The notes beneath the pieces are model-generated. The model saw nothing but the letters and a program-made list of their open reading frames with translations, had not been told where the DNA came from and made no database searches. The position numbers and the translations under genes were made by a program. This document shows, piece after piece, positions 6,836 through 15,676 of a DNA stretch of 33,607 bases. Numbering within the stretch: the first letter of the stretch is position 1; each line of letters opens with the position of its first letter. Origin of the DNA: a virus (taxonomy: Duplodnaviria > Caudoviricetes); IMG/VR virus record IMGVR_UViG_3300027744_000063, positions 1 through 33,607 of that record. One strand, 5' to 3'.

Positions 6836-9800
6836 ATGGCACGGATTCTTTCGCAAGAAGAGATTGACGCACAATTTGGAGGCGGCTTCCGTGCTGAAAT
6901 AGCACCTGCTGGGTTAGGCACTAGGTTTGGTGCAGCTATTGATCGTTCGCAAGCCGGTCTTCTTGGCATTGGTGAAGCCGCTGGATTGCCTTTAGGTGAT
7001 CTTCGCCGCCAAAACCAATTTGAACAAGAAGAATCAATGCAGCGGTATTTTAGGGATAACCCTAATGACCCGCAATCTTACAAAGATGTTGAAGGCGTTG
7101 GTTCGGCACTGCGTTATGCCCGTGGTTTAGCCATTGACTCATCCCCCGAACTTATAACAAGTTTAGCTACTGGCGGTACTGGCGCTTTAATGGGTCTTGG
7201 CACTGCTGGTCGTATTGGCTTAGCTGCTGCTGCAAATTACCCATCTGCTGTAGGCGACATTCTTCAAAACCAACGTCAAGAAGCCGGTCAAACTGCCTTA
7301 GGCGTAGCTGGTTTATTAGGTGTTCCTTACGCCGCTGCCGATTTAGTCGGTCTTGATGCTGCTTTAGCCAGTGGCAAAATGATGCGCACGGGTATCAAAC
7401 GTCTTGACGAAATGCAGGGTGTTCGCGGTGGCTTAGCTCGTACTGGTGCCAACGTTGCTCTAAACGCACCTATTGAAGGCGCAAGCGAAACATTCCAAGA
7501 GCTGGTAAACCAAGCCGGTCGCATGGCGGTAAACCCACGTCAGACCATGTTTAACCCAGAAGCCAACGAGCGCTATCTGGAATCATTCATTGGCGGTGCC
7601 ACGTTAGGTGGTGCCGCTTCTGGCGTTTTAGGTGGTTGGCGTCGTAGTGAGCAGTACCAGCCCCCAGAACAAGAAACCGATCTTTTAAGCGGGCAAAAAC
7701 CGCAAGCACCAGCGCCACAACAATATGGTTTGGTTACACAACCAGCGCCATTGCAGCAGCGAATTGACCAGCAACTCGGTATTGGCGCTCGCACTACACC
7801 TAAAGATTACGCAAAGCAATTTGCAGCTGCCTATGATGAACCTAGTGGCCAGTATGCCACCGACCCCGTAACAGGTCTTGAAAAACAATTGTCTGTTGGT
7901 GAATATCAGCAGATGACAAACGCATCTTTGGATTTAACTGAATCAAAACCAGCTATTGCAGCTGCGGCTACAGCAGTTAACGCAAAAATAGAACGTGACC
8001 CTAAAGATTTATTTATCAGGGATACGTTAAAAGTAATCCCGAATCAGTACAGCCGACAGTTATTTGACATTATGGCTGAGAGCGGAGTTGATCCTCAGTC
8101 TGACTTGATGGCTCCTATTTGGAACTACGCCGCACAGAAGTACATGGGAAAAGGCCGGTACGAAAAAGCTGTTCAGTTGATGGACGAAGCCATCATAAAC
8201 GCACGCAAGGGAGCACCAAGTGGCATACCAACTTCAACTGGACTGGGAACTGCAGGAGGCGTGGGAGTCGGGGGCGCTGTCGTTCCGGGAGCTGTGGGAG
8301 CTGCAGGATCAGCTCCTTCTATCCAAGGCGCAGTTGGTGGAACTGCCGCCGGAACTGGAGCCCCACTTCAACAAGCTGGTATTCTTCCAGACACCAGCGG
8401 TCAACCATCTACCACTGTAACAACTGCGCCTACTGATCTAACAACCCCTGCTGCGACTACATCTAAATTCAGACGTGCTCCTAAACCCATGACTGTGTTG
8501 GAAGCCGCTGAAGCTGCTAAAGCCCAACAAACGGGAACTCGCAAGCAAGCCACCTTAGCTCGTGGTGAAGTTACACCTGATGTTGTTAGTAAATTGTCCG
8601 ATGACCAGTTGGCTACTGAGCTGACTAACGTCAACATTAGCGATGCAGAATATGCTTTGCTGCAGCAAGAACAGGCGCGGCGTAGCCAGAAAGACGCCGT
8701 TGATGAACGTCAAGTTGTATTGCGACAAATCTTTGGTGATCGTAATGGCGACATTATTTTTGATGTTGTTGGTATGGGCATGTCTGAGCCAGAAGCTGCG
8801 GCCAAGTACAACACTAGCCGCCAGAACATCCAGAAAATTGCTGGTGCAACAGGACAGAAGACATGGCCTGAACGGATTCTTAGAGCAAAAACTAAATTTG
8901 GTTTAACCGATGCTCAAATTGCTGACGCCTTTAACACTACCGCGCCCGATAGTTTAGAAAGCCAAGTGCAGACTGATGTGTTTGGTCAGAGCCAAGAGCG
9001 CATGGATGAAGGCGAAGCCATTGAAGCCGGCCTTGAAAATATCGTCAAAACCGCAGGTGCTAGCACTGCCGCAGTCGAAGGTTTTACTGATCTACAAAAC
9101 GAAATTGATGCTACGTTGGAAGCTCTGGCTGCTGAGACTGACGAAGCTGTTCTTAAAGAACTCAACGAAAAGCTGGCTGAACAACTTGTTAAAGTTCGCG
9201 CCGTTGAAAAACGCGCTCAAGCAGAAGTTAGAGCTAATGCTGGTCGCAAATCTAAAAAGGATGAGGCTGACGAAGCTGTCGCGGAAACCGTTAAACCTGT
9301 AGGAGAACCAGATGCCGTTCAAGTCACAAGCACAGCAGTCGTACCTGTTCAGCCAAAAACCGAAGCTGGCAAAGGAGTGGGCGGCCAAGTACGGCGTACC
9401 GAAAAACCTGCCAGCAAAGGCCAAGTCACCGTCCAAGGTCAAGCCAAAGAGCAAGTAAATAAAGGTCAAGTCCTGTGGAATAACCTTGTTGCTAAGACTC
9501 CCGGGTTAGTACCCTACGAGCAGTTAACCAAGTTAGAGCAGGACTACCTGACCGACTTGGCTGTTCGTACCAATGGCAAACCTGTGGTTGCCAAAGAGAT
9601 GGGCTTGCAGCAGTTGCTGACTAAAGAGCCAATCACCATTGAAGGTGAGACTCGGATTATTGATGAGCAAGTCACTACACAAGTAGCTGCTTTGCCTGCA
9701 CCCCAAGTTGAACGCCTTGAACAGCACTATGGCGCTAAACGTGGCAGTGCCGAGTTCTTGGAAAAAGTCCAAGCTGACATTACAAAGTACGTTACGCAAG

Positions 9801-12800
9801 GTGCAGAAGCCGTTGCCGGTGCTATTCGCAGCATTATTAAAGCGATGGCCGAAGGCGTCCTTGCCATGGGTATTGTGTTCAACCCGAACATTACCAAAGA
9901 TGCATTCACTTTAAATGTTGCTAAGACGTTTGAGCAGACCATTGAAGTAACCCAAGCAGTACCCGCTGTAGCCAAAGCCCAAATGTCGCCTACTGCACAA
10001 GCAGTTTACGAAGCCATGGCTCCCGTTGCAATGAAGTCTGGTAAGTGGTTCATGGTTGCTGACAAGCCTAACGGCATGTTGCACATCTTTAAAGAAGACG
10101 GCTCACACGCATTGTCCGATCCAACGCTGTACGGCAAAGATACCGGCGACGTTCTTGCAGCGGTTTCCTCGCTTGAAGGCGGAGCAAAAGTTACTCCTGC
10201 CGGTAAATTTACTCTCAAAGCTAGAGCATCCACGTACGCTGGCGGCCAAGAGCTCATCTTGGTTGAGTCAAAAGATTACACAGGCTACATTGCCATTCAC
10301 GCTGCAGACACCAGCACACCTTCTGAAAACCGTTTAGGTCGATTAGATACGCCTACCGCAGCAGACAACCGAGTTAGCTACGGCTGTATCAATACCAAGC
10401 ATGATACGTTTATCAACGAGATTGCTCCCAACATTGCCAATCTTGATGGCGGTATGGTGTTTGTTGTGCCAGATGCCCAAGAGCAAGCAGCTCAGATGTT
10501 TGCTGCCGAGACTCGTACAGAGACCCGCACCGAAGGTGGCCAAGGAGCTAAAGGCGTTGCAGCTGCTTCTGTCGTGGGCAAAGAAGAGAACATGCTGTTT
10601 GGTAAAGACTTACCCACAGTACAAGCACCAAAGCTTGTAAACAATGGCCGCACTCTTGATTTGGTTATTGATGGCAAAGTTACCAAAACGTACGACTTGG
10701 TAAGCCAAGGATTGTGGGATGCGTACAAAGGTAGACCTGAAGCGCAAGAAAATATGTTGCAAAACCAAGGCCCGCGACAAATAAGATCAGAAGCAATTGA
10801 AGCTTTAGAAGATGCGCAACGAGTTTATTCGGAGCAAGCCCCTCTGTCCCGAGTTGAGAATGACGCTATCCAAGCGTTGGCTAACAATGATACGTCACTG
10901 ATGAAACGTATTGTGACTAATCTAACAATTAGAGATTCAGTTTTGCGGATGCTGTCTTCGGCTTTGTCGTATCCCGGACAGCCTTATAGTGATTTTAGCG
11001 GTCTTGCAGCCATGAGTGAATATGACTCTCGCGCTAAATTAACTGCGGAAAACATTTTGCGTTACGCCCCTGAGTACATGCTCAAAAATGCAAACATTCC
11101 AGCAGAGTTTAAAGACATTCAGTTCGGTAAAGACCGTGTGGCAAACCAACCTTATACAGCTGTTGGACTAGCCGCTGAAATTAAAAACTTTATTCGCGCT
11201 GACATTACAGACCGCAAATTAGTTATTGTTGACAGTATTGATGATTTGTTAAATTCAGGTACGCCTGAAGTCCAAGCTCTTGGTGAAGCTATTCAAGCTA
11301 AAGGTGCTTACGGTGTTGCTCAAGGCGGAGTTGCTTATCTTATTGCCAACCGCATTCAACAAGGTCAAGGCCGTGCTAAATTTATGCACGAGGTTGGAGC
11401 TCACCTTGGTTTAGAAAACTTGTTGCCTACTGCGGTCTACGACAGATTAGTTGATCAAATTGCGACGTGGGCTGGCTCAAACAGAGATTCTCTTGAAGCT
11501 CAACTAGCAGCTAAAGCTAAAGCCCGTGTTGGTTACGCAAAAACACCTACTGCCGACGAACGTGAAGAACTGCTTGCGTATTTTATTGAAGAAGCCATGC
11601 TTGCCGGCGTTGACCCAACAGCAGCAGGTAAAGAATCTGGCCCGTTGATGGCTTGGTTCCGTACATTGTGGGCTGCATTTAAAGTTGCAGTGCGCAAACT
11701 TGGCTTTAAGCCAGAAAATCTAAAAGCACAAGACGTTGTCAACTTGGCGTTTGGCGCTGCTCGTTTAGAGATGAACGGTTCTTGGCACGGCACTGCTGCC
11801 ACGTTTCGCCGGTTTAACCATGAGTTTATGAGTTCGGGCGAAGGCGCTCAAGCGTACGGTTGGGGCAGTTATATTGCTCAAGCTGTTGGTATTGGTAAAG
11901 GTTATTGGTGGAATGACGTTAAGCGTAAAGAAACATCTACTGTTGAAAATACACTTAAACAATACGTCGGATGGCGTTTTGCCGAATCAGTTTTGCACCC
12001 AGTAGACAGAGAAGAAATTGCTTACGCTGGCTCGCAAATAAAAGTAGCTAAGGACTTAGCAGAAGCAGTTTATATGAATCCGGCTGAGTTTGCGACGCCC
12101 GGCTATTTAGCGCGCCGTTTCCTTGAAGCCGGATTGGACTATATTAAATTAGTTTCGCCAACAGGGGAAAAGAAAACTGTCCGAATTGGTGGCCCAGCCG
12201 GCAACTTAATGCGCGTAGACATGGCGGTGTCTAACGATGAAATGATTAACTGGGATTCGCCTTTTGCGTACCAACCAGAAATTGTTCGGGACTTTGTTAA
12301 AGGCGAAGCTGCTACTATTAAAGACCTGAACGACAATAAAGGCGCTAATATCCGCATTAAAACTGGCGAAGATATTTACAAATATTTAGTTGCTCGTTTT
12401 TGGAACGAGTCTAAAGGCACTGGGCCGTGGAAAGACGCAAGCCCAGAAGTAAGAATGGCCGTCAAAGAAAAAGCCTCTAAATATTTAGAATCCAAAGGCA
12501 TTCAAGGTATTCGATATCTCGACGCTGAAAGCCGAGACAATACTTTAGACAATATCACTTTTAGTAAAAATGGCAAAGTAATAAAAAGCCGCGCCGGTAT
12601 TTTGCAAGCGTACTTTACCCCCGGAGCAATTGTGCAAGGGTATGGCGGCCCCGATAAAGTCATTCGTTTTGACCCTGCCAAAGAACTGATTACAGTCATT
12701 GCTGTTGATAACGACGGAAATCCTCGTCGCGGCGAACGTGAAAGAACGCACTTCACAATACCTAGCGTTAAAGACGTTAGCTTTGCTATGAAAGAGCGGG

Positions 12801-15676
12801 GGTATATTACTAACACAACAAATCGCACGCGCAATTTTGTTATCTTTAATGAAAAGAACATCCAACGTGTTGGTTCTCAAACAGCTGCCGATAAACAACG
12901 CATAAAGTTTGGTGTAAATGCGCCAAACCAAGGAACTATCCAACGCAACATTGCCAAGTTGCCTAGAGCTGCACAGCAACCTGCGCGTTTGTCTTTGGGT
13001 GCTATCGGTGATGCAGTCAATAAAGGCTTAGACTACGTTGTCTTTACCAGCGATTTGGTTGACCGTGCTACTAAGTCAGGCGTTAGTTCTGCTAAAAAGT
13101 TTGTGGACTTAGTTGGCAAAAGCAAATCCGAAGCCCGCGAAAATGAGATTGCCGTTGAGAAAATCTCTGACATGTATGCCCTTGTCCCTGAAAAAGACCG
13201 TGGCACTGGCGATGAAAGCGTAAACCGTTTCTTGTTTGACTCTACACGCGAAGGCAAGTGGGGTTACGGCAAGTACCGCAATGATGACATGGGAGCACGC
13301 TTTGATGCGTTGGCTCCAGAATCACAAGCATATGTAGAAGCTGTCTTTGCCCATGGCAGTGACATGTTGGCTAAGAAAAAGAAACTTGTGTTGGATTCAA
13401 CCAACAGTGAGTATGACGCCATGATTGCTGCTGCTAAGGCCGACGGCGATACAGCCAATGAAGTTAAACTGACAAAAGAAAAAGAAGCTACCCTCAAACG
13501 TTTCCAAACTTTGTTCAAGATTCGTGACGGTATTCCTTACGCTCCAATCAAACGCAATGGTAGCCATGTAGTTATTGCCAAGTCTAAAGAATACTTGGAT
13601 GCCGAAGCTGCAAACGACAAAAAGAAAATTGCTGAGTTGGAAAGCAATAGTGACCACTACCACGTCAGCTTTACAGACGGCAAGTGGGAGGCACGCACTC
13701 TCCAACAGGACTTAAACGACCAAGGTTTCTTTGACGACGTGCAGATTGCCGAGCGCGATACCGTTATTGACGAGATGTTTAGCGGCCACTCTGCTTTGCG
13801 TGAACTGACTAAGATGCGTTCGCGTGTTGATGCGCAAGCCAAGGATGGCGATAAATCTTCGTCTAAGATGCTAAGCCTAATTAGTCAGATGTACTTGGAG
13901 GCGTTGGCAGAGGGTAGTGCTCGCAAATCTGAGATGCGTCGTCGTGGCGTGGCTGGTGAAGTGGACATGATTCGCTCGTTTGCCCAGCAGGGTCGTGCTG
14001 ATGCCAACTTTATGGCGTCTATTAAGTACAACCCACAAGTTCAAGACGCATTGCAAGAGATGCGCAACCAAGTCAAAAAAGGCGACCGCGAACGCAAGTC
14101 AGAAATCTTTAATGAATTGGCTAAGCGTTATGTCCAGTCTTTGGATTATGTTGAGCGCCCATGGTTAAACAAGTTGACTCGCATGTCGTCCTTGTACTTC
14201 TTGGCGACTAGCCCTGCGTATTACTTACAGAACTTGACACAGCCATGGATGATGTCGGTTCCCGCAATGGCCGGCAAGCATAACTACAGCCAAGCATCGA
14301 CAGCATTATTTAAAGCTTACACCGAACTTGGTGGAGTAATGAAGTCTGCCAAGTTGCTAAAACAACAGTTTGACTTTAACAAAGTGCCAGCTGATGTGCG
14401 CGATGCCATTAAAGAATTGGTCAACCGTGGCAAGATTGATATCGGTTTAGATACCGAGATGGGTGAATTTAAAGTCGAAGGTGACGGATACTTCGCTGGC
14501 AAGATTAGCGCTGCTGATAAAGCTCTGCGTTTAGCCGTACAAAAAGTTGAATCTATCAACCGCTTGTCTACTGCCATGGCTGCGTATCGTTTAGAACTAG
14601 CTAAAACTGGTAACAAACAAGATGCTATTAACTACGCTGACCGCATCCTGACAGAGACGCACGGTGACTACACCAGCTTCAATGCCCCTCGTGCGTTTAA
14701 CACTGGCGTGGGTAAAGTAGCATTGCAATTCCGCAAGTTTCAATTAATTCAGTTATCGTTCTACGCCAAACTAATTAAAGACGCTTTGCAGGGTGCTGAT
14801 CGCGCTGCGGCTTTGAAGACTTTAGCTTATTCGCTAGGCCACACAGGTTTGCTTGCAGGAGCTATGGGCATGCCGGGTTACGCAGCTATAGCATGGGCAA
14901 TTAACGCTCTACTTGGTGACGAAGACGAACCATATGACATTACCAACGAAATTCGCAAAGCCATTGGTGACGAACAAGTTGCAAACTTAATTTTGCGCGG
15001 AGCTCCTACACTGGTAGGTGCTGATATTTCCGGCAAGGTTGGTGCGGGCAACATGCTGTCTATCATGCCGTTTAGTCAGGCTGACTTAAGTACAACTGCC
15101 GGTAGAGCCGAAGCTTTTGGTACGCTAATTGGCGGCGCTTCTCTTGGCATGGTCTCAAGAATGATTGATGGTTTGGGTTTGATGATGAGTGGTGATTGGC
15201 ATCGCGGCTTAGAACAAACAATGCCTAAGGGCGTGTCTGATGCTATGAAAGCGTACCGTATTGCCAATGAGGGGATGACTCGCCGTAACGGTGATATTAT
15301 CTTGCCGCCTGACGAAGTATCAGCTATGGATACACTATTCCAAGCTATTGGGGTTCAACCAGTTAAACAAACTGTCACTTACGAACGCCAAACTCTGATG
15401 AAAGAAACAACTCAGAACTTTACTGAGCGCACAACAAAAATCAAAAATGATTATGTCAAGGCAGCTCGTGCTGGTGATTCTGAAGCCCAAGGGGAAGCGC
15501 GGGCCGCTTGGCAGAAACTGCAAGCGGTTAAACGAGAAAACGGCGTAAACACAACGCCTTTGTCTGAGTTACTTAGAGCTCCAGCTGAGCAGAAAAAACG
15601 TGAAAAAATGACAGTTGGTGGTGTACAGTACACTAAAGGAACCCGTAAACTAGCTGAAGAAATCGCAGGAGAATAG
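6836..15676 (+). CDS. Giant polyvalent internal virion protein (2946 aa): HTH, L,D-transpeptidase-like, zincin-like, ART-like and C-terminal LPD/PLxRFG-like regions
   Basis: Uninterrupted ORF with GAGG SD. G/A-rich hydrophobic N-terminus. Motifs IH..SYGCIN, HEVGAH, WHGT..GEGAQAYGWGSY and THGDY..QFRKFQ. Confidence 0.85.
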   Translation: MARILSQEEIDAQFGGGFRAEIAPAGLGTRFGAAIDRSQAGLLGIGEAAGLPLGDLRRQNQFEQEESMQRYFRDNPNDPQSYKDVEGVGSALRYARGLAIDSSPELITSLATGGTGALMGLGTAGRIGLAAAANYPSAVGDILQNQRQEAGQTALGVAGLLGVPYAAADLVGLDAALASGKMMRTGIKRLDEMQGVRGGLARTGANVALNAPIEGASETFQELVNQAGRMAVNPRQTMFNPEANERYLESFIGGATLGGAASGVLGGWRRSEQYQPPEQETDLLSGQKPQAPAPQQYGLVTQPAPLQQRIDQQLGIGARTTPKDYAKQFAAAYDEPSGQYATDPVTGLEKQLSVGEYQQMTNASLDLTESKPAIAAAATAVNAKIERDPKDLFIRDTLKVIPNQYSRQLFDIMAESGVDPQSDLMAPIWNYAAQKYMGKGRYEKAVQLMDEAIINARKGAPSGIPTSTGLGTAGGVGVGGAVVPGAVGAAGSAPSIQGAVGGTAAGTGAPLQQAGILPDTSGQPSTTVTTAPTDLTTPAATTSKFRRAPKPMTVLEAAEAAKAQQTGTRKQATLARGEVTPDVVSKLSDDQLATELTNVNISDAEYALLQQEQARRSQKDAVDERQVVLRQIFGDRNGDIIFDVVGMGMSEPEAAAKYNTSRQNIQKIAGATGQKTWPERILRAKTKFGLTDAQIADAFNTTAPDSLESQVQTDVFGQSQERMDEGEAIEAGLENIVKTAGASTAAVEGFTDLQNEIDATLEALAAETDEAVLKELNEKLAEQLVKVRAVEKRAQAEVRANAGRKSKKDEADEAVAETVKPVGEPDAVQVTSTAVVPVQPKTEAGKGVGGQVRRTEKPASKGQVTVQGQAKEQVNKGQVLWNNLVAKTPGLVPYEQLTKLEQDYLTDLAVRTNGKPVVAKEMGLQQLLTKEPITIEGETRIIDEQVTTQVAALPAPQVERLEQHYGAKRGSAEFLEKVQADITKYVTQGAEAVAGAIRSIIKAMAEGVLAMGIVFNPNITKDAFTLNVAKTFEQTIEVTQAVPAVAKAQMSPTAQAVYEAMAPVAMKSGKWFMVADKPNGMLHIFKEDGSHALSDPTLYGKDTGDVLAAVSSLEGGAKVTPAGKFTLKARASTYAGGQELILVESKDYTGYIAIHAADTSTPSENRLGRLDTPTAADNRVSYGCINTKHDTFINEIAPNIANLDGGMVFVVPDAQEQAAQMFAAETRTETRTEGGQGAKGVAAASVVGKEENMLFGKDLPTVQAPKLVNNGRTLDLVIDGKVTKTYDLVSQGLWDAYKGRPEAQENMLQNQGPRQIRSEAIEALEDAQRVYSEQAPLSRVENDAIQALANNDTSLMKRIVTNLTIRDSVLRMLSSALSYPGQPYSDFSGLAAMSEYDSRAKLTAENILRYAPEYMLKNANIPAEFKDIQFGKDRVANQPYTAVGLAAEIKNFIRADITDRKLVIVDSIDDLLNSGTPEVQALGEAIQAKGAYGVAQGGVAYLIANRIQQGQGRAKFMHEVGAHLGLENLLPTAVYDRLVDQIATWAGSNRDSLEAQLAAKAKARVGYAKTPTADEREELLAYFIEEAMLAGVDPTAAGKESGPLMAWFRTLWAAFKVAVRKLGFKPENLKAQDVVNLAFGAARLEMNGSWHGTAATFRRFNHEFMSSGEGAQAYGWGSYIAQAVGIGKGYWWNDVKRKETSTVENTLKQYVGWRFAESVLHPVDREEIAYAGSQIKVAKDLAEAVYMNPAEFATPGYLARRFLEAGLDYIKLVSPTGEKKTVRIGGPAGNLMRVDMAVSNDEMINWDSPFAYQPEIVRDFVKGEAATIKDLNDNKGANIRIKTGEDIYKYLVARFWNESKGTGPWKDASPEVRMAVKEKASKYLESKGIQGIRYLDAESRDNTLDNITFSKNGKVIKSRAGILQAYFTPGAIVQGYGGPDKVIRFDPAKELITVIAVDNDGNPRRGERERTHFTIPSVKDVSFAMKERGYITNTTNRTRNFVIFNEKNIQRVGSQTAADKQRIKFGVNAPNQGTIQRNIAKLPRAAQQPARLSLGAIGDAVNKGLDYVVFTSDLVDRATKSGVSSAKKFVDLVGKSKSEARENEIAVEKISDMYALVPEKDRGTGDESVNRFLFDSTREGKWGYGKYRNDDMGARFDALAPESQAYVEAVFAHGSDMLAKKKKLVLDSTNSEYDAMIAAAKADGDTANEVKLTKEKEATLKRFQTLFKIRDGIPYAPIKRNGSHVVIAKSKEYLDAEAANDKKKIAELESNSDHYHVSFTDGKWEARTLQQDLNDQGFFDDVQIAERDTVIDEMFSGHSALRELTKMRSRVDAQAKDGDKSSSKMLSLISQMYLEALAEGSARKSEMRRRGVAGEVDMIRSFAQQGRADANFMASIKYNPQVQDALQEMRNQVKKGDRERKSEIFNELAKRYVQSLDYVERPWLNKLTRMSSLYFLATSPAYYLQNLTQPWMMSVPAMAGKHNYSQASTALFKAYTELGGVMKSAKLLKQQFDFNKVPADVRDAIKELVNRGKIDIGLDTEMGEFKVEGDGYFAGKISAADKALRLAVQKVESINRLSTAMAAYRLELAKTGNKQDAINYADRILTETHGDYTSFNAPRAFNTGVGKVALQFRKFQLIQLSFYAKLIKDALQGADRAAALKTLAYSLGHTGLLAGAMGMPGYAAIAWAINALLGDEDEPYDITNEIRKAIGDEQVANLILRGAPTLVGADISGKVGAGNMLSIMPFSQADLSTTAGRAEAFGTLIGGASLGMVSRMIDGLGLMMSGDWHRGLEQTMPKGVSDAMKAYRIANEGMTRRNGDIILPPDEVSAMDTLFQAIGVQPVKQTVTYERQTLMKETTQNFTERTTKIKNDYVKAARAGDSEAQGEARAAWQKLQAVKRENGVNTTPLSELLRAPAEQKKREKMTVGGVQYTKGTRKLAEEIAGE
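8220..8420 (+). CDS. Putative overprinted gene (66 aa, acidic, W/L/E-rich) in the +1 frame of the giant gene
   Basis: AAGGGAG (8207-8213) lies 6 nt before GTG. The host frame becomes low-complexity G/A/V/T with many GGA codons over this interval. Confidence 0.6.
   Translation: MAYQLQLDWELQEAWESGALSFRELWELQDQLLLSKAQLVELPPELEPHFNKLVFFQTPAVNHLPL
9312..9458 (+). CDS. Putative overprinted gene (48 aa, basic) MPFKSQAQQSYLFSQKPKLAKEWAAKYGVPKNLPAKAKSPSKVKPKSK in the +1 frame of the giant gene
   Basis: AGGAGA (9301-9306) before ATG 9312. In-frame TAG just upstream (9300-9302). TAA at 9456-9458. Below the ORF-track size cutoff. Confidence 0.7.
   Translation: MPFKSQAQQSYLFSQKPKLAKEWAAKYGVPKNLPAKAKSPSKVKPKSK

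Follow-up and report, generated by a model that had tools for sequence, protein, structure and literature searches.

A 66-codon reading frame lying in the +1 frame of a giant phage gene very probably represents a genuine hidden gene, as judged from its own sequence and those of its relatives, and its translation is likewise very probable. The reading that we prefer, with a probability of roughly 0.4, is that of a nested gene with its own ribosome-binding site (RBS) on the late mRNA of the giant gene, whose predicted three-helix product would be a non-essential helper binding the N-terminal part of the giant protein. The stretch analysed here (the window) is a 33.6 kb virus record of 58% completeness, in which the virion genes are found on the + strand and the replication genes on the - strand. 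The features referred to below are as follows:

Positions 6836 to 15676, + strand: giant gene, 2946 aa (PHROG 10089, tblastn matches, virion-gene neighbours).
Positions 7250 to 7642, + strand: Gly/Ala-rich N-terminal domain, giant aa 139-269 (hhalign and iterated HMM).
Positions 8207 to 8213, + strand: Shine-Dalgarno-like AAGGGAG, 6 nt upstream of a GTG.
Positions 8219 to 8422, + strand: host-frame segment, giant aa 462-529, rich in Gly/Ala/Val/Pro/Thr and in Ser, with no aromatic residues.
Positions 8220 to 8420, + strand: nested gene 1 (66 aa, 7.8 kDa, pI 4.4), in the +1 frame of the giant gene.
Positions 9312 to 9458, + strand: nested gene 2, a 48-aa basic protein (MPFKS...) in the +1 frame, with AGGAG at 9301-9305.
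Positions 13364 to 15658, + strand: DarB-like/PLxRFG C-terminal region of the giant (PHROG and tblastn matches).

The giant gene likely encodes an internal virion (ejection, polyvalent) protein. Residues 2177-2941 matched PHROG 10089 ('DarB-like antirestriction') with E 3.6e-62, tblastn returned the DarB-like/PLxRFG giants of PBC5, Atu_ph08, PEp14 and others (~26%), and internal-virion, tail-fibre and structural genes precede it. Its kinship with these giants and its virion-gene surroundings both assign it to the polyvalent/DarB-like class, and it is on these family matches and neighbours that the 'ejection gene' label of the original prediction is to be understood. The N-terminal domain is shared with marine BA3-type giants (hhalign probability 91.7, E 7.8e-7; BA3 giant at E ~1e-37 in an iterated HMM search); between the window's clade and a distant freshwater clade, N-terminal homology was not detected (hhalign probability 1.5). 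Nested gene 1 occupies the first linker past this domain. Further downstream, the region at window ~10050-10390 (giant aa ~1070-1185) resembles an L,D-transpeptidase (YkuD-type) module ending in SYGCIN; it matched a PHROG without a name only, and is found in some relatives and not in all. We also take HEVGAH at aa 1518 (within window ~11380-11860) to be a metallopeptidase-like motif, and WHGT...GEGAQAYG at aa 1650-1675 to resemble the ADP-ribosyltransferase domains of polyvalent proteins.

The proposed AAGGGAG, 6-nt spacer and GTG do open a +1 ORF, with the GTG at 8220 and a TAA ending at 8420, and this RBS ranks third among 333 out-of-frame start triplets of the giant gene. The product had been described as acidic and Trp-rich; it is indeed acidic (10 D+E, 3 K+R, pI 4.4), while its Trp content is only modestly high (3/66). 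The description of the host frame as a G/A/V/T/P linker rich in GGA was borne out over aa 462-529, GGA accounting for 10 of 18 Gly codons inside the interval vs 28 of 239 elsewhere in the giant (Fisher p = 3e-5). The open +1 frame, taken alone, is at chance level and weak evidence, as 22.7% of the 20,000 synonymous variants generated for the host segment leave it free of stops. No promoter-like site was found near nested gene 1, suggesting that its product comes from the giant's late mRNA. Apart from the RBS, inspection by eye showed no DNA motif that is conserved upstream.

The comparison of related copies is decisive. Among 16 close sequences, host-frame four-fold synonymous divergence dropped to 0.07 inside the interval, from 0.46-0.66 in 12 windows upstream of it. 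Differences by nested codon position were 0.138/0.115/0.269 in 26 distinct sequences, a set that leaves out locus L028 and its 13-codon deletion. Protein identity among close copies was 0.82 for the nested frame vs 0.65 for the host frame; between clades the corresponding values were 0.36 vs 0.24, and 0.19 vs 0.10. This drop in divergence, together with the conservation in homologues described below, strongly supports the proposal that the +1 frame is a hidden gene under selection. The deletion in L028 (3001-3162) is in frame and drops the second helix with both frames kept; this copy is possibly decaying.

Judging by the aligned copies, the host frame over the nested gene is constrained in composition only, and not in sequence. 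At nested four-fold third positions where T carries no risk of a host stop, G amounts to 55-75% and T to 2-4% in all three clades, vs 15-31% and 15-44%, respectively, at the giants' own four-fold sites; F/W/Y/C make up 0-0.4% of the host segment, these base and residue counts coming from related copies and hence not being independent. The third-position G bias and the near absence of F/W/Y/C suggest that the giant is likely read through, with selection favouring small or polar residues in the linker. Wherever this host-frame segment occurred, the nested gene was there too, so that a de novo origin on a pre-existing linker, as the term 'overprinted' implies, is not established.

A first scan for homologues, seeded with the nested peptide, yielded 28 loci from 47 candidates, and in all 28 a start was retained, the stop kept its position and the host frame was open. 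As this set was selected by the peptide itself, a second scan took its seed from the C-terminal part of the giant (aa 2181-2380), at a distance of 5 kb; its seed alignment consisted of the window and two peptide-found loci, and leans to the window's clade. Thirty loci were recovered, four of them ending before the region, and 24 of the other 26 carried an intact +1 ORF. The attempt to refute the gene by +1 stops or a lost start in homologues thus failed, neither being seen in these 24; in the two exceptions the linker sequence itself was absent, rather than present with a broken +1 frame. A search with the giant's N-terminus in the host frame gave only 2 loci.

A profile search of 1.84 billion proteins found 41, including one unrelated 540-aa match, one chimeric-looking protein and a few partial ones. 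All 127 profile matches (loci L001-L136) were +1-frame ORFs nested in a reading frame that is open over at least 500 aa, and nine metagenome loci, two of them cut by contig ends, embed the gene likewise. No free-standing copy was found among the 127 matches or the nine metagenome loci, pattern-seeded searches for such homologues being liable to miss distant relatives. The slot lies at about aa 420-660 of ORFs of 2,000-3,600 aa, in freshwater and marine carriers with differing C-terminal modules. The matches are redundant and reduce to 63 distinct DNAs, the window included, which start with ATG (37), GTG (23) or TTG (3), end with TAA (35), TAG (19) or TGA (9), and encode 66-69 aa in 60 cases. 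GGAG or GAGG precedes the start in 54 of the 63, vs 8 of the 333 out-of-frame start triplets that served as background in the giant gene. A whole inner ORF, its own start and RBS motif, and purifying selection are what is expected of an embedded same-strand overlapping gene. Two further leads were set aside: the only GTDB match, on a 60-kb contig that was binned into a Phycisphaerales MAG and is probably of phage origin, was not used to assign a host, and contigs from RNA runs, which in three of four runs span the nested gene but hardly anything more, were not taken as evidence of expression, since the shares are small, the holders cover their own search target, and DNA contigs also break at 8421.

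The AlphaFold model of the 66-aa product shows three helices (residues 7-17, 22-34 and 44-57; pLDDT 76.7, pTM 0.58), and the positions conserved in the family are hydrophobic ones and those of an EAWxxQD motif. No Pfam, PHROG or PDB-sequence family was matched; the family is without a Pfam or PHROG model and has been called mostly on short contigs, presumably because gene callers suppress nested ORFs. A Foldseek search of the model against the PDB returned nothing at E <= 0.001, and VIA-align was uninformative (the top match had Z 4.3 with rmsd 3.8 over 62 aligned residues, and Z >= 5 was not reached). In the ESM Atlas, clusters of 62-71 aa without names matched the window's protein, a result of low value for recognition, and family member P0053 had no match.

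The family extends to the cultured phages BA3, VvAW1 and vB_ValP_FGH, where the gene is nested in the same manner. The top match of the product among predicted viral structures was the 110-aa A8HNW3 (probability 1.00, TM 0.75, E 0.14), an entry without a name whose accession range is presumably that of phage BA3, a tentative link by this range and by length only. The homology to BA3 holds independently of it: BA3_0004 (YP_001552273.1), the only 110-aa CDS of Thalassomonas phage BA3, lies in the +1 frame inside the 2631-aa BA3_0002 and is homologous to the nested family over residues 48-107 (hhalign probability 95, E 3.8e-8). With a profile built without marine members, VvAW1, BA3, two IMG/VR relatives and vB_ValP_FGH came top of 6,803 ORFs (E 2e-10 to 8e-8; next best 0.029). 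Scores of 34.8 and 39.8 bits also lay above the shuffle maxima of 9.5 and 12.4 (~1,000 shuffles each). As in the window, the BA3 gene follows a homologous N-terminal domain. It differs in being ~19% identical and in its annotation from an upstream ATG, the homologous part starting at Met47/48; its giant differs in a host frame rich in Glu/Ala/Val/Pro rather than Gly, and in its matches to DNA-methyltransferase families. The N-terminal Gly/Ala-rich domain is common to BA3-type giants and that of the window, and the C-terminal parts are different. The copies in VvAW1 and vB_ValP_FGH are unannotated. A tree of 37 copies, built on few columns and with long branches, gave supports of 96/89 for the window's clade and 97/91 for the marine clade; when three freshwater members were run by tblastn on cultured phages, nothing usable came out. 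A candidate in Erwinia phage PEp14 (L159:5784-6092) showed a weak likeness (hhalign probability 33) and was not counted; it is a 76-aa +1 ORF with GGAGG-ATG, 70-73% identical in Pavtok and Stean.

The relatives that lack nested gene 1 indicate that it is dispensable and replaceable. The L088 genome (97% complete) has a homologous N-terminal domain, lacks the Gly-rich segment and gave no nested-family match under a first-look filter. The gene is also absent from Shewanella phage X14, a BA3 relative, whose giant (L154) has at BA3's nested-gene site (aa ~510-600) a folded-looking stretch that we take to be ParB-like. In L088, X14 and L092 (three cases only) the inner gene and its outer-frame segment are both missing, and there was no family match in PBC5, Mwe-JY07, douglas 12A4, Skulduggery, POI1126, X14 or P26218, some of them checked in part. 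In L092 the same slot holds an unrelated 86-aa +1 ORF, and the family to which this ORF belongs (MENCNC..., ~80 aa), always nested, fills it in 21 sister loci, of which 19 have the homologous N-terminal domain; nested gene 1 is absent from the available DNA of all 21 (best E 0.17).

L092, positions 7224-7481 and 7485-7613: unrelated cassette, with AAGGAG-ATG, and following ORF; family loci L160-L180.

Absence in relatives and replacement by an unrelated cassette argue against an essential, dedicated partner of the giant. The ~80-aa ORF is often directly trailed by a basic +1 ORF of 43-60 aa. Nested gene 2, whose motif occurs in 22 of the 30 host-seeded loci, matched PHROG 1375 weakly (E 0.011). 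A further unannotated +1 ORF of ~110 aa (MNLQNWISQA.../MNLNNWVSQA...) was seen in the giants of VvAW1 (L153, aa ~742-851) and PEp14 (L159:8097-8417).

That there is no gene, and that the +1 frame is a shadow of a Gly/Ala/Val linker or reflects a constraint at the RNA or DNA level, is highly improbable. A stop-free frame does arise in 23% of recodings, but the changes pile up at the nested third position, the +1 protein of the marine phages is recognisable at the E values given above in a region whose host frame retains 10% identity and has lost its Gly richness, and both frames survive the L028 deletion. Ribosomal frameshifting into the +1 frame, yielding a short form of the giant with the nested sequence as its C-terminal domain, is scarcely more probable. 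It could account for P0066, a single 2,098-base contig in which the host frame is fused to the nested frame, and the only such longer form among 8,000 candidates scored; the junction of this one record, however, lies beside a G run and is more simply explained by an indel. The conserved RBS motif and the interchanging start codons point to internal initiation rather than frameshifting, and in L060 and L061 a +1 stop lies immediately before the ATG.

As to function, our leading guess, a tentative one, is that the small protein is a helper or binder of the giant's N-terminal part. Translation would be initiated at the gene's own RBS inside the late mRNA, and the three-helix product would bind the N-terminal part during synthesis or packaging, in a role that would not be essential. 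The fixed position of the slot may reflect simple inertia of a dual-coded segment, which is a point against this helper role. Nearly as likely is an independent cargo, a real gene housed in spare linker space of the late transcript and acting not on the giant but on a protein of the host or on some other one of the phage. Both comS in srfA and gene E in gene D of phiX174 are nested genes whose products are not known to bind the outer product; the slot is exchangeable, being empty in L088 and X14 and taken by the unrelated cassette in 21 loci, and a second, unrelated nested gene sits in the next linker. Yet none of the 127 matches lies outside the slot, although other modules of the giant are swapped, and a host-targeting product would need to work in marine Gammaproteobacteria and freshwater hosts alike. 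The original prediction named a chaperone, inhibitor or antidote; an antidote, which would hold an enzymatic or toxic domain of the giant in check up to the moment of ejection, is unlikely. Acidity and expected co-expression with the giant would suit it, as would the peptidase and ADP-ribosyltransferase domains that polyvalent phage proteins carry, according to the available part of PMC5512222. However, no downstream module is common to the three carrier clades, and those between aa 900 and 2000 come and go among close relatives while the gene is always kept. The upstream N-terminal domain is common to two of the three clades, and also occurs where the nested gene is missing or an unrelated one takes its place; both counts weaken the case for a dedicated antidote.

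A broader and rather doubtful extension of the helper reading is that the linkers in the giant ejection genes of podophages serve as interchangeable sites for a hidden operon of small +1 genes, nested gene 1 being an old member that encodes, in cis, a dedicated chaperone of the ejection protein. If so, a layer of phage genes, with a helper of an ejection protein among them, would have been missed by annotation and by proteomic databases, and the family would have been kept from freshwater to marine phages and swapped for unrelated cassettes in sister lineages. The 'low-complexity linkers' of giant phage proteins can be dual-coding, with sequence under selection in one frame and composition in the other, and such slots can swap their cargo. 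Since BA3, VvAW1 and vB_ValP_FGH are cultured carriers, translation and function are directly testable.

The outer gene matches the polyvalent/DarB-like internal virion proteins, giant and modular, which are proposed to be packaged and ejected (available parts of PMC5512222 and of bioRxiv 10.64898/2026.04.10.717836); the latter provides an example in phi24B gp47. The terms tried for nested or overlapping genes had no match in the available text of PMC5512222 or of the phi24B preprint, and the literature compared was not found to describe nested genes in giants of this kind, which includes parts of PMC3558961, PMC9011153 and PMC8954989; the BA3 genome paper or its supplements may mention BA3_0004. 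Embedded +1 genes over flexible linkers are already known, as described in the available part of PMC6139136 for lambda Rz1 of the two-component spanins. Its gene runs in the +1 frame through the part of Rz that encodes a flexible linker, and the two products are partners, which makes the pair a precedent for a nested partner of the helper type. The two systems share full embedding, the same strand, the +1 frame, a flexible outer linker and a tendency to be missed by annotation. They differ in that the window's 66-aa protein has no Cys, and hence no lipobox, and its outer gene encodes a 2946-aa likely virion protein with DarB-like matches rather than an i-spanin, so that the product is not identified as an o-spanin (Rz1); and the slot in the window, unlike that in Rz, accepts unrelated genes.
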